Of a DNA stretch of 5,573 bases, positions 36 to 4,436 are shown in pieces (position 1 is the stretch's first letter; every line of letters begins with the position of its first letter). Made by a program: the position numbers and the translations under genes. The stretch comes from a virus (lineage: Duplodnaviria; Heunggongvirae; Uroviricota; Caudoviricetes), in IMG/VR virus record IMGVR_UViG_2531839128_000025, one strand, 5' to 3'. A model generated the notes under the pieces. The model searched no databases, had not been told where the DNA came from, and worked only from the letters and a program-made list of their open reading frames with translations.

Positions 36-617
36 TATCGCGTCCTCAACAATGAATTTTGTGATGCGGTGCCTGGTGCCTCCAGGTGACGTTAACCAGT
101 TAACAATTAACGCCGGATACAGAGAACCCACCCATAAGAACCAATACGGAGGTCAACTAGCCTTTTTAACTGTTCCGCGTGCGCTTAGCCGCATTCACCG
201 CATCACAAAATTCACTTTAAAAAGGGCGGCAGAGCAGTCACGGAGTAAAACTGATACCGCCAAACGTCACCAGAAAATTGATAACAGAGGGCGTTGCAGC
301 GGAGTTGTCACTTAAGTGTATGGTCAACCTGACAACCCGGTGCTTCATCGGGAAGACATGAACTCCCCGCCATACTTACCGCCGCGCCATTTCGCGGAGT
401 GCCACAACCGGAAGCGCACGGTCGACGAAAATTTAACGACAGGCTATCTATGAACCAGCTACCTCGCCGTGCGCTTTCGCGTTATGGTCTGACTTTTCAG
501 GGAAATATCCTTTCAGTAAACTGTCAGTTCCGGATGCTCACCCGTGTCCGGCGCACGCACTCCACCTCACCCGTGGAGAACTCCTTAATTACCAACCTTA
601 GCTTCGTTGGTTAGCTA

Positions 618-836
618 TTAACGCGGGTATGTAATCATTCTGGCAATGCTTAATGCCGCTGCTTTTTCCAGCCTGGTGATATCCTGCTCCAGAGCGGACA
701 GATTTTCAGCCTGCTTAGCCCTGGCTTCATTGGCCCATTTCAGATCCTGCGCTGCATTAATTTTCTGGCGCATCCACTCATAAAGTTCATCATCGGTATA
801 GTCTGGCGCGATGATGACGGGTTCTCGTTTCTGCAT
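618..836 (-). CDS. small early-left-operon phage protein, 72 aa, unknown function (MQKREPVIIAPDYTDDELYEWMRQKINAAQDLKWANEARAKQAENLSALEQDITRLEKAAALSIARMITYPR)
   Basis: Minus-strand ATG at 836 preceded by a near-consensus RBS (minus 5'-CACAAGGAGTCGAC-ATG; AAGGAG with 5-nt spacer). Protein is helix-like and charged, not antisense-looking. It is the C-terminal part of the 271-codon frame 618..1433. Its position left of the repressor matches where small kil-type genes sit in Rac-like prophages (recalled, not verified). Confidence 0.5.
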   Translation of the reverse strand: MQKREPVIIAPDYTDDELYEWMRQKINAAQDLKWANEARAKQAENLSALEQDITRLEKAAALSIARMITYPR

Positions 837-1433
837 GTCGACTCCTTGTGGTTCGTGTTGCCTGCTTTTAACCACATCAGGCGAGGTGGTATCCTGAAAG
901 CCGACCAAAGCTTTACGGATAAATAAGTTATGTTGCAACCACCAATAAATCCGCTTAAAAATATGAAAATTGATTACTGGTATAAAGCACTTACAGTTGT
1001 TGGTGCTGCGTTGTTTGTCTTTAATGGAACATCTTTTTTTGACAGATACCCCGTTGTTCCACTGGCTTTTTTGTCCTCCGGTATTTTCTTCACTGGCCTT
1101 GGAGAGTGGATCAATCACCCTCTCAGAGTGAGATTTATTGGTCCCGGAGCCGTTGCCCGGGGGCATAACCGTTCTCCGTGCACACTCGGCATTATCTTCG
1201 ATATATTGGGTGTCTGCCTGATTGTTACAGGAGTCGTCAAATTCTTCTGAAGAGAATCCACACACAGGGCATACAACCGGAATACGGCAAATGATTTCAC
1301 CCGGCTCGATGTGTGGGTACTCGCCATCAATTTTTTGTTGCTCCCGTATGCCCATGTTGACCTCATTTCCCCTTAACGCCGGGGTAGCGGAACAAAAACC
1401 TGCTGCATAGTTAAAGTTGAACCCTGCCGTCAT
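618..1433 (-). CDS. alternative long gene model: 271-codon open frame (the 72-aa gene would be its C-terminus); possibly two genes or a decayed gene
   Basis: Uninterrupted minus-strand frame from the ATG at 1433 (GAGG 9 nt upstream); a second in-frame ATG at 1355 has a GAGG RBS with 5-nt spacer. The N-terminal 90 aa contain a Cys cluster (CRIPVVCPVCG...DSC...ECARR). The central ~110 aa (about 836-1180) are K/N/S/I-rich and read like the antisense of the T-rich plus-strand membrane ORF. The full-length model is therefore doubtful. Confidence 0.2.
   Translation of the reverse strand: MTAGFNFNYAAGFCSATPALRGNEVNMGIREQQKIDGEYPHIEPGEIICRIPVVCPVCGFSSEEFDDSCNNQADTQYIEDNAECARRTVMPPGNGSGTNKSHSERVIDPLSKASEENTGGQKSQWNNGVSVKKRCSIKDKQRSTNNCKCFIPVINFHIFKRIYWWLQHNLFIRKALVGFQDTTSPDVVKSRQHEPQGVDMQKREPVIIAPDYTDDELYEWMRQKINAAQDLKWANEARAKQAENLSALEQDITRLEKAAALSIARMITYPR
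963..1250 (+). CDS. small hydrophobic (membrane) protein, ~95 aa, 2-3 predicted TM segments; possible superinfection-exclusion-type accessory gene
   Basis: ORF 930..1250 in the supplied track; the ATG at 963 gives MKIDYWYKALTVVGAALFVFNG...VVPLAFLSSGIFFTGLG...LGIIFDILGVCLIVTGVVKFF with clear hydrophobic segments and T-rich third codon positions. No good Shine-Dalgarno before 930 or 963. Opposite orientation to its neighbours, as for sieB in Rac and lambda (recalled, positional only). Overlaps the long minus-strand frame. Confidence 0.35.
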   Translation: MKIDYWYKALTVVGAALFVFNGTSFFDRYPVVPLAFLSSGIFFTGLGEWINHPLRVRFIGPGAVARGHNRSPCTLGIIFDILGVCLIVTGVVKFF

Positions 1434-2899: not shown

Positions 2900-3970
2900 A
2901 TGGCTAACGCTTGGCTCAGATTATGGCATGACATGCCAAATGACCCTAAGTGGCGAACAATTGCCAGGGTGTCAGGGCAGCCAATTGCAACAGTGATGGC
3001 AGTGTATATCCACCTCCTGGTGAGCGCGTCACGAAATGTCACGCGAGGTCACATTGATGTCACGACAGAAGATTTAGCAAGTGCGCTCGACGTGACAGAA
3101 GAGGTAATTGATTCAATTTTGCAGACGATGCAGGGGCGGGTACTTGATGGTGATTTAATCACTGGATGGGAAAAACGCCAGGTGCTTAAAGAGGACAACG
3201 GCAATATTTCGCAAACCGCAAAATCTCCGGCAGAGCGCAAGAGGGCGCAGCGAGAGAGGGAAAGAAAGCGGGAACAAAATGGCGATTGTCACGGCGCGTC
3301 ACGAAATGTCACGCACATGTCACGACGAGTCACGACAGATAAAGATACAGATAAAGATACAGATCAAGAAGATCAAAACACTATGGTCCATGGCGTAAAA
3401 AACGCCACGAACCAGGCAGGGGATGTTCAGACCGTCAATCCTGGTCAGCCAGCAGGCACGACACCGGAAGCCGATTCAGCGTATGCGCTGAAAGCCGATT
3501 CGGGCGCTGTGCAGCAGGTGATGACCCCAAGGCCGGAGCAATCACACCAACTGCAGCAGCCTGAAGCCGATTCCGCCATTCAGCGGGAAGCCGATCGGGT
3601 AGTCCCGGAAAACACCGGGCTGTCTGTGGGACGAGTGGATTATCCGGATGTATTCGAACAGGTCTGGCGGGAGTACCCGTTGCGTGCCGGAGCAAACCCG
3701 AAGAAATCCGCTTTCAGTGCCTGGAAGGCCAGATTACGCGAGGGGGTGCCACCAGAGGCCATGCTGGATGGCGTGAGGCGTTACGCAAGATACTTGGCGG
3801 CTACCGGGAAAACGGGAACGGAATTTGTTCAGCGAGCGACGACGTTTTTTGGACCGGACCGGAATTTTGAGAACCCCTGGTTGCTCCCGGTAAGCGGCAC
3901 GAACAACCAGCGTTGTGTGAATCATATTTCTGAACCGGATAACGAAATTCCGCCGGGCTTCAGGGGGTAA
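2900..3970 (+). CDS. phage replication initiation protein (replisome-organizer / lambda O-like initiator) carrying its own origin iterons
   Basis: ORF 2894..3970 in the track; the likely start is ATG at 2900 (GAGG at 2891-2894, 5-nt spacer), with GTG at 2894 as alternative. N-terminus ANAWLRLWHDMPNDPKWRTIARVSGQPIATVMAVYIHLL resembles phage replisome-organizer N-domains. C-terminus FEQVWREYPLRAGANPKKSAFSAWKARLREGVPPEAMLDGVRRYARYLAATGKTGTEFVQRATTFFGPDRNFENPW resembles the conserved C-terminal motif of phage DnaD/O-like initiators (recalled). Internal phased repeats plus an acidic DKDTDKDTDQEDQ linker mirror lambda ori-within-O architecture. Confidence 0.85.
   Translation: MANAWLRLWHDMPNDPKWRTIARVSGQPIATVMAVYIHLLVSASRNVTRGHIDVTTEDLASALDVTEEVIDSILQTMQGRVLDGDLITGWEKRQVLKEDNGNISQTAKSPAERKRAQRERERKREQNGDCHGASRNVTHMSRRVTTDKDTDKDTDQEDQNTMVHGVKNATNQAGDVQTVNPGQPAGTTPEADSAYALKADSGAVQQVMTPRPEQSHQLQQPEADSAIQREADRVVPENTGLSVGRVDYPDVFEQVWREYPLRAGANPKKSAFSAWKARLREGVPPEAMLDGVRRYARYLAATGKTGTEFVQRATTFFGPDRNFENPWLLPVSGTNNQRCVNHISEPDNEIPPGFRG
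3024..3064 (+). repeat. iteron-like cluster A: four GTCAC(G/A) hexamers phased at 10-11 bp inside the replication gene N-domain coding region
   Basis: GTCACG at 3028, 3038, 3059 and GTCACA at 3048; inverted copy CGTGAC at 3091-3096. The 21-mer GCGCGTCACGAAATGTCACGC (3024-3044) is repeated exactly at 3294-3314. Confidence 0.5.
3284..3380 (+). repeat. iteron cluster B plus AT-rich tandem repeat: putative replication origin within the initiator gene
   Basis: Five GTCACG hexamers at 3288, 3298, 3308, 3319, 3329 (helical-turn phasing), immediately followed by tandem 12-mers AGATAAAGATAC x2 (3337-3360) and a degenerate AGATCAAGAAGATCAAAAC. The iterons-then-AT-rich layout in the linker between N- and C-domains parallels lambda ori in gene O. 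Confidence 0.55.
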
Positions 3971-4010: not shown

Positions 4011-4436
4011 GTGGCAAAAGTTTTTACACAAGAAGAGCGGGAAAAAATTAAAGGGCAGGTTGTTGAACTCGTACGCCAGAGTGGGCGCGAGACGTTACGA
4101 CAACTGGAAACTAAAACTGGGGCAACAAGATATCTGATGAGTGTTCTGGCCAGAGAGCTGGTTGCCAGTGGCGATGTATACAACTCTGGTTACGGGTTAT
4201 TCCCGTCTGAACAGGCGCGTAAGGACTGGCAAAATGCCCGTATAAAGCTCTCAAGGGCAAAGCTGAAGAAACCATCTGCGGTTGATCCGGACCTTATCTG
4301 GTCATTACCTGACGGAGAAATACGTCGCTACGATAGTTGTCTAAACATAATCTGTCGCGAGTGCCGGAAGAGCGAAGTTATGCAGCGCATTCTGGCATTT
4401 TATCAGGGAAATGTTAGGTATTTTAGACGTTACTAG
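4011..4436 (+). CDS. hypothetical phage protein, 141 aa, N-terminal winged-helix-like segment; GTG start
   Basis: Strong RBS AGGAGG (4001-4006) 4 nt upstream of GTG at 4011. N-terminal VVELVRQSGRETLRQLETKTGATRYLMSVLARELVASGDVY looks like a wHTH. C-terminal half has a small Cys cluster (CLNIICRECRK). Family not identified; sits where a helicase loader would be in Rac. Confidence 0.7.
   Translation: MAKVFTQEEREKIKGQVVELVRQSGRETLRQLETKTGATRYLMSVLARELVASGDVYNSGYGLFPSEQARKDWQNARIKLSRAKLKKPSAVDPDLIWSLPDGEIRRYDSCLNIICRECRKSEVMQRILAFYQGNVRYFRRY

Follow-up and report, generated by a model that had tools for sequence, protein, structure and literature searches.

The window analysed here, a 5,573-nt stretch of viral DNA (Caudoviricetes; IMG/VR record IMGVR_UViG_2531839128_000025), is the immunity and replication region of a lambdoid Escherichia coli prophage. 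One of its rightward genes encodes a replication initiator and contains two arrays of short direct repeats (iterons), an A-rich tract and an inverted repeat. On the strength of the sequence comparisons described below, we consider it highly probable that positions 3028-3414 are the vegetative replication origin of this prophage, lying inside the gene of its own initiator. The elements of the locus are the following:

2894 (GTG) or 2900 (ATG) to 3970, plus strand: initiator gene, 356 amino acids from the ATG at 2900.
3028-3064, plus strand: iteron array I, with GTCACG at 3028, 3038 and 3059 and GTCACA at 3048, spaced 10, 10 and 11 bp.
3091-3096, minus strand: single inverted copy of GTCACG, GACGTGACAGA, conserved in homologues.
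3288-3334, plus strand: iteron array II, with GTCACG at 3288, 3298, 3308, 3319 and 3329, in frames 1, 2, 0, 2 and 0; proposed main initiator-binding site beside the unwinding element.
3335-3383, plus strand: A-rich purine tract, proposed DNA unwinding element, ACAGATAAAGAT in 2.9 copies followed by CAAGAAGATCAAAACACTA.
3384-3414: inverted repeat TGGTCCATGGCGT / ACGCCACGAACCA, with 13-nt arms and a 5-nt loop, abutting the A-rich tract.
3896-3967, plus strand: DnaT-like C-terminal 24 residues, GTNNQRCVNHISEPDNEIPPGFRG, which may connect the initiator with loading of the host helicase.

The gene matches phrog_3729 ('replication initiation protein') with an E-value of 1e-256 and its product is named 'phage replisome organizer' in RefSeq (PGAP) and under that name in phage records, in agreement with an initial annotation, made from the letters alone, that had called it an initiator; the peptide RNVTHMSRRVTTDKDTDKDTDQEDQ quoted there is the true translation of the 2894/2900-3970 open reading frame (ORF). 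The protein consists, in order, of a winged-helix N-domain (approximately residues 1-95), a basic helix (approximately 110-130), a disordered acidic linker, a helical C-domain and the DnaT-like tail. An AlphaFold2 (AF2) model of residues 1-159, with a mean predicted local distance difference test score (pLDDT) of 71, contains helices at 3-14, 16-25, 29-45, 56-63 and 67-77, a beta wing, the basic helix at 110-130, and a disordered tail at about 128-159 with pLDDT below 50. The modelled N-domain is a winged helix similar to the N-terminal domain of DnaD and to plasmid initiators. It aligns with positions 1-119 of the 121 in PF09681, the N-terminal phage replisome organiser profile, scoring 16.5 bits against a cut-off of 23.3 bits (E 0.0085), and Pfam searches at E-values up to 10 gave no match to the N-terminal lambda O family (Phage_rep_O type). 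Given the helices of the model, array I would encode the end of helix 29-45 and the loop 46-55, ahead of the helix-turn-helix. The predicted disorder, in turn, implies that array II and the A-rich tract (residues ~128-160) encode the disordered linker, so that the model bears out the proposed location of these repeats in a coding linker, with the winged helix before it and the helical C-domain after it.

The five copies of array II follow each other in steps of 10, 10, 11 and 10 bp, at exactly the coordinates given in the initial annotation, and Tandem Repeats Finder delimits them as an array of period 10 (3287-3337, consensus TGTCACGACA). That inventory had nevertheless missed array I and the inverted copy at 3091. 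Array I (GCGTCACGAAATGTCACGCGAGGTCAC...ATGTCACGACAGAAGAT, also given as GCGTCACGAAATGTCACG...ATGTCACGACAGAAGAT) is a near-copy of array II, and the two arrays lie approximately 130 and 390 nt into the ORF. The inverted copy occupies the identical gene position (192) in the gene of a Pseudomonas phage and was seen again in other homologues. The window contains 10 GTCACG, as compared with 1.57 expected, a number that none of 200 dinucleotide shuffles reached. We also examined the complete genome (46,360 bp) of Tritos, which, like vB_EcoS-689R5, is an isolated phage whose initiator gene shows 98% identity with that of the window. Its 25 GTCACG on both strands are close to the 22.6 expected; nine of them fall within the kilobase of the initiator gene, and arrays I and II are the only clusters of at least three copies in 60 nt.

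The repeats act at the DNA level and not at the level of the peptide. Their period of 10-11 bp does not divide into whole codons, and the hexamers accordingly appear in each of the three reading frames. When synonymous codons were resampled with the protein held fixed, genes contained on average 0.7-0.9 GTCACG as compared with the eight observed, and none of 20,000 resamplings reached eight. In a codon alignment of the 25 species-level homologues that use GTCACG, the frequency of the major allele at third positions of codons for conserved amino acids was 0.96 within the hexamers (12 codons) and 0.54 outside them (46 codons). Together, the frames, the resampling and the conservation of synonymous sites indicate that the peptides encoded by array I (SRNVTRGHIDVT, starting with SRNVT) and array II (CHGASRNVTHMSRRVTTDKDTDKD) follow from the DNA signal, as had been suspected when the protein sequence was described as shaped by the DNA repeats. 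Since the sites lie inside an ORF, they are confined to parts of the protein that can accommodate them, a surface loop and a disordered linker, and dictate the peptide there.

These results bear directly on the idea that the repeats are neutral, arising as a by-product of slippage in a low-complexity linker or as a repeated peptide motif, and have no function in the DNA. Indeed, the linker is a charged, low-complexity segment with predicted disorder, the number of iterons varies from three to eight among homologues, and array I has grown by in-frame insertions in some species. However, slippage or peptide repetition is at odds with a period that uses all three frames, with the constancy of synonymous positions across 25 species and with the failure of recoding to reproduce the observed count; moreover, array I lies in a folded domain and has the same core as array II in 48 loci (see below). 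This explanation is thus strongly disfavoured, and we hold it to be extremely improbable.

To place the arrays in a broader context, homologues were gathered by their N-domain from annotated phages and from one genome per bacterial species (80 loci); viral contigs scanned with the N-domain yielded 100% identical copies only. For each gene, the number of hexamers phased at 10 or 11 bp was compared with that of 100 codon shuffles. It exceeded all 100 shuffles in 70 of the 87 homologous genes, and equal-length flanking DNA never contained more than two, so that most homologues keep the repeats along with the protein, the initial annotation having named the opposite pattern as evidence against an origin. 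The same layout, of array I, array II and an A-rich purine tract, occurs in most of the homologues, which come from approximately 85 phages and bacterial species, with the arrays at conserved gene positions (~nt 120-180 and ~nt 350-450). The core differs by lineage, being GTCACG in 31 loci, CGAACG in 15, GTAACG in nine, GCAACG in three, and GGAACG and GTGACG in two each, which amounts to a GNNACG(C) pattern; the initiator of Ralstonia phage Hennie is of the GCAACG type. Phased copies of array II were found in 75 loci, 48 of which also have an array I with the same core, indicating that all copies have switched together several times.

Exchanges of protein domains separate the two halves of the gene. 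The initiator of Pseudomonas phage phita81A combines an N-domain 69% identical to that of the window with an unrelated C-domain, and its gene has both GTCACG arrays, at unchanged positions; conversely, E. coli phage PhiR5_2 has the C-half of the window with a different N-domain, and neither array. The arrays go with the N-domain and not with the C-domain. DNA homology between the window and PhiR5_2 (L002) starts at about 3371, at the end of the A-rich tract (L002 gene nt ~499), so that the tract doubles as a recombination joint between an N module for specificity and a C module for interaction with the host. That the core covaries with the lineage of the N-domain in both arrays, independently of the C-domain, leads us to infer that the initiator itself would bind the repeats. 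Mutual information was also tried as a way to find specificity-determining residues, but the top columns were encoded by array I or fell on residues 100-113, and the result is confounded by phylogeny, so we make no claim on such residues.

The same comparison addresses the possibility that the hexamers are bound by some other factor, be it of the host or the product of the neighbouring YdaT/CII-like or DUF977/Ren-like gene, for transcription control, packaging or partition. In its favour, TGTCAC read on the opposite strand is GTGACA, which is similar to a -35 hexamer, and array II is overlapped by one weak promoter-like site of the minus strand. Yet the arrays persist in Pseudomonas, Aeromonas and Ralstonia phages with differing neighbour genes, and their core changes with the N-domain lineage across hosts of several phyla, which argues against a conserved host factor. 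In addition, the promoter scan showed no enrichment (one site found and 0.8 expected), DnaA boxes were absent from the vicinity of the arrays and below chance in number, and in Tritos the terminase genes and genome ends lie approximately 14 kb or more away. We thus regard binding by another factor as very unlikely.

Two variations among the homologues were also noted. In L092 (Escherichia albertii) and L117 (Pseudomonas sp. JAI111), array I is enlarged by in-frame insertions into the winged-helix loop (gene nt 100-290), with two extra direct copies in the former and four direct and three inverted copies in the latter, indicating that iterons can be gained inside the loop of a folded domain. 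The minority of loci without clear phased hexamers includes L118, L120, L137, L138, L141, L142, L147, L149 and L156. Four of these (L141, L142, L147 and L149) are iteron-less gene copies in one betaproteobacterial metagenome-assembled genome, L137 has ten AGATAA and almost no iterons, and L156, from Pantoea, contains palindromic CTACGTAG-type repeats in place of phased hexamers.

Directly after array II, as the initial annotation had stated, comes an AT-rich tandem repeat: ACAGATAAAGAT in 2.9 copies at 3335-3369, with 95% matches (Tandem Repeats Finder). The whole tract, 3335-3383, has 29% GC and 71% purines in a gene of 54% GC. The duplex of the gene is weakest here at both scales: its 30-bp minimum of stability starts at 3339 and its 50-bp minimum at 3335, more than three standard deviations from the gene mean. 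Two GATC sites lie within it, at 3362 and 3371; the window as a whole is not enriched in GATC. Among 62 loci, the 40 nt following the last iteron of array II averaged 36% GC (56% for the gene) and 74% purines. A YAGATA(A/C)R motif, typically (C/T)AGATAAAGATA, follows the arrays in 62 of 86 loci irrespective of the iteron core, and the YAGATAAAGATA-type motif of the tract likewise recurs family-wide whatever that core is.

The position of the tract helps to decide whether the arrays could be mainly regulatory, acting in autorepression, as a roadblock or in copy control by handcuffing, with the origin either elsewhere or limited to array II and the tract, array I being regulatory. In plasmid P1, two separated arrays, incC and incA, lie around the initiator coding sequence, and the arrangement found here recalls them. 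Furthermore, no AT-rich tract adjoins array I, and both arrays are so placed (130 and 390 nt into the ORF) that RNA polymerase could be blocked by a protein bound to them. Against this, the gene has its least stable duplex immediately 3' of array II, the tract recurs throughout the family, the 46-kb Tritos genome contains no other GTCACG cluster and no other replication gene, and the proven origins of SPP1 and lambda share the layout (PMC5737612; PMC7466680). A mainly regulatory function is unlikely in our judgement, and a regulatory role restricted to array I would be compatible with the origin rather than an alternative to it.

The inverted repeat at 3384-3414 may be a third origin element. 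Folded as single-stranded DNA, it gives z-scores of -5.3 for the minus strand and -2.75 for the plus strand, and it is kept in PhiR5_2 with changes in both arms (GGCGT/ACGCC to GGCGA/TCGCC). A GC-rich stem occupies this position in many homologues, where it lies in differing reading frames and often has a CC-T(G/A)AC-GG loop. Perfect-stem scores after the tract were raised (44% as compared with 11% of controls), but the folding energy of 80 nt of DNA at this position was not below that of control segments across homologues (p = 0.87), and we therefore treat the hairpin as an unproven family-wide element. The hairpin and the T-rich complement of the tract could instead form an intrinsic terminator of antisense (leftward) transcription, because a scan of the minus strand flags the 13-pair stem followed by TAGTGTTTTG, and several homologues show on that strand a GC-rich stem followed by TTTATCTTTATC. 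The T run is, however, interrupted and does not start at the stem, and terminator-like sites are not in excess (one, as compared with 1.3 in shuffles). Such a terminator, to which we assign a very slight probability, would leave the iterons and their conservation unexplained and, concerning a single sub-element, could coexist with origin function. As a separate observation, a second conserved element, (T)GTCGCCAGC-N3-4-GCTG(G/A)C(G/A)AC, itself an inverted repeat, lies approximately 60-110 nt past array II in L133, L145 and L162; the GTCGCCAGC element is found 3' of the first hairpin in several betaproteobacterial loci, in differing frames, and recalls two-hairpin single-strand initiation signals.

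Several observations weigh against an origin at 3028-3414. Phased hexamers were not clear in 17 of the 87 homologues by the codon-shuffle comparison. Because the arrays overlap or abut the coding sequence of the N-domain, linkage alone would explain their inheritance together, leaving only the concerted switch of the core as an argument for a shared recognising factor. The tract, moreover, is only about the sixth to tenth least stable segment of the 5.5-kb window, and 1.5% of the 50-bp windows of Tritos are less stable. Of the two comparisons with related phages that had been proposed as a check, that of the repeats revealed conservation, whereas GC skew was uninformative, since the cumulative skew of Tritos follows gene orientation and does not turn at the origin. 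Finally, literature searches brought up no experiments demonstrating replication activity, unwinding or binding in this family. Nor did searches for iterons, sequence strings, replisome-organizer origins and DnaT-like phage proteins retrieve a published description of an origin with GTCACG iterons.

A plausible course of initiation at this origin would begin with binding of the GTCACG cores by the winged-helix N-domain of the initiator. The 10-11 bp phasing places the cores on one face of the helix, suggesting that the initiator would oligomerise on the five sites of array II and on array I, with its four direct sites and one inverted site approximately 260 bp upstream, which might be an auxiliary or looping site. 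The nucleoprotein complex, together with supercoiling and rightward transcription through the gene, would then melt the A-rich tract at 3335-3383. More speculatively, the DnaB helicase of the host would next be loaded with host DnaC or primosome machinery, via the C-terminal module of the initiator. The initiator is the sole recognisable replication gene of Tritos, and no gene for a helicase, loader or primase was recognised in its complete genome; the window is of this single-replication-gene type, with no P-like loader gene found 3' of the initiator gene. As the phage has neither helicase nor loader gene, DnaB would presumably be loaded through the C-terminal module.

This module is composed of the helical C-domain, weakly DnaD-like and with no relatives in the PDB by sequence and profile searches beyond the DnaT tail, and of the tail itself. 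The latter is nearly identical to the end of E. coli DnaT (PDB phmmer, 6aep_A, E 0.003, most aligned residues being identical; NCBIfam DnaT, E 7e-4, positions 156-179 of 179) and contains the motif SEPDxxIPPGFRG of the extreme C-terminus of DnaT. A Pfam search showed that the DNA-binding domain of DnaT, PF17948, is absent from the protein of the window; it is present in relatives that share the N-domain, from an Aeromonas phage (E 1e-16) and in P0064 (E 6e-17). Similar DnaT-like tails close initiators with other C-domains (SfV orf39, P0032, P0039, P0045 and P0096).

The linker contains four copies of GAAGCCGAT, at 3467, 3491 (with one mismatch), 3563 and 3587, within 3467-3595 of the plus strand, which encode PEADS, KADS, PEADS and READ. 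We considered and rejected these as a second set of iterons, because their spacings of 24, 72 and 24 nt are all in frame; they are a duplicated acidic peptide (EADS) of the linker, which accompanies the C-module and is conserved in PhiR5_2. In DnaT itself, PriB is the partner of the acidic linker, and the C-terminal domain docks onto PriA as well as assembling into filaments on single-stranded DNA (PMC13377028). The acidic EADS repeats might parallel this PriB-binding linker, and their combination with the DnaT-like tail suggests, by analogy, mimicry of a restart primosome protein. In PhiR5_2 the same C-module sits upstream of a phage DnaC-like gene, which fits a DnaC-type loader as its partner and also indicates that the tail is not specific to single-gene modules.

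Taken jointly, these features raise the possibility, which we regard as doubtful although worth stating, that the window is the founding example of a family-wide origin design not previously described, combined with a GNNACG code and recruitment of the helicase through a DnaT mimic. Such a design may be distributed among Proteobacteria, Acidobacteria and cyanophages, and may consist of one gene with a bipartite origin, with iterons in the loop of the DNA-binding domain and in the linker, a AGATAAAGATA-type tract and a hairpin. Its specificity may follow a simple GNNACG 'specificity code' that co-evolves with the winged-helix domain, and in lambdoid phages with one replication gene the helicase may be recruited by mimicking DnaT through the acidic linker and the tail. 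Only an O-like gene is present in 34 of 314 lambdoid phages, whose replication 'is not yet understood' (PMC12315714); if true, this joint interpretation would answer how such 'O-only' phages replicate.

The other features annotated in the window are the following:

224-275, minus strand: DicF antisense small RNA gene (Rfam RF00039, 76.7 bits, full length).
618-1433, minus strand: ORF of 271 amino acids with a Cys-rich segment, CPVCGFSSEEFDDSC, matching three PHROGs of unknown function.
1618-2037, leftward: cI-like repressor gene.
2138-2419, rightward: YdaS/Cro-like gene.
2403-2828, rightward: YdaT/CII-like gene.
4011-4436, 3' of the initiator gene: DUF977/Ren-like gene.

Relatives carry dicB and ydfABC-type genes near DicF, and it is DicF with these neighbours that places the window in a Qin/Tritos-like prophage. 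Prophages adjoining rspB in several E. coli chromosomes show 98.9% identity over 91% of the window length. The closest E. coli genomes annotate small ydfA/B/C-type genes in the region 618-1433, so the window differs there from its nearest relatives. More than 80% of the window is present in only 65 of 5,426 complete E. coli genomes, and most contain partial matches.

These results locate a candidate origin for a type of prophage and phage that is common in E. coli (Tritos, Evi and vB_Eco isolates), and likely define the origin of hundreds of related elements in other bacteria. The natural switching of cores (GTCACG, GTAACG, GCAACG, CGAACG) with the initiator offers a test system for the evolution of initiator-origin specificity, and the gene is a case of how DNA signals and a protein sequence share one stretch of DNA. 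The DnaT-like tail provides a concrete hypothesis for helicase loading in phages with a single replication gene. In practical terms, the segment might be used as a compatible replicon or as a decoy that counters phage replication, and codon 'optimisation' of such initiator genes would destroy the origin.

The initiator family is widespread, and the arrangement is of a known type. Staphylococcal pathogenicity islands have origins with hexamer iterons, in which short iterons lie beside an AT-rich region. In these, as in incC/incA of P1, the arrays are intergenic and the initiator families are unrelated to that of the window. E. coli DnaT and Bacillus subtilis DnaD also differ from the initiator of the window, which lacks PF17948 and whose C-domain matches the fold of DnaD weakly; besides, neither is a sequence-specific origin binder with iterons of its own.

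The likeness to lambda ori proposed in the initial annotation holds for the layout but not for the protein or the iterons. The lambda origin lies in the middle of gene O, with four to six copies of 19-bp iterons that are imperfect inverted repeats (PMC7466680). As in lambda and its Stx-phage variants, iterons and an AT-rich tract occupy the middle of an initiator gene, where extra iterons add residues to the protein (PMC7466680), and the origin belongs to the rightward early operon, downstream of cro and cII-like genes. Unlike the 19-bp palindromes of lambda, the cores of the window are direct repeats of 6-7 bp, phased at 10-11 bp and grouped in two arrays; its protein has no match to lambda O, and no P-like loader gene comes next.

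Another parallel is the proven oriL of Bacillus phage SPP1, inside gene 38, where the replisome organizer G38P binds direct repeats (AB boxes) next to an AT-rich unwinding element; in vitro, 356 bp of it are enough (PMC5737612, PMC6316719). In the inter-domain linker of the SPP1 gene we found GAAACGACA and CGAAAAAGACA at 11-bp steps, followed by AACAATGAT-type repeats with 20% GC. Both systems thus have the origin within the gene of the initiator, with short direct repeats beside an AT-rich element in the linker, and both proteins are called replisome organizers, the N-domain of the window being a weak match to the N-terminal replisome organiser profile. Nevertheless, profile comparison detected no homology between the initiator of the window and G38P (hhalign probability 0.1%), whose only Pfam match is PF09524, in its C-terminal part. 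SPP1 also possesses another origin, oriR, and encodes a helicase and a loader of its own (G40P and G39P), whereas the type represented by the window has one locus and neither gene, and the array within the coding sequence of the DNA-binding domain is without an obvious SPP1 counterpart. The kind of origin is therefore already known from lambda ori and SPP1 oriL, from which the window differs in the initiator family and in the grammar of the iterons; what is added here is the second array, the family-wide conservation, the lineage-specific switching of the core and the idea of how the helicase is recruited.

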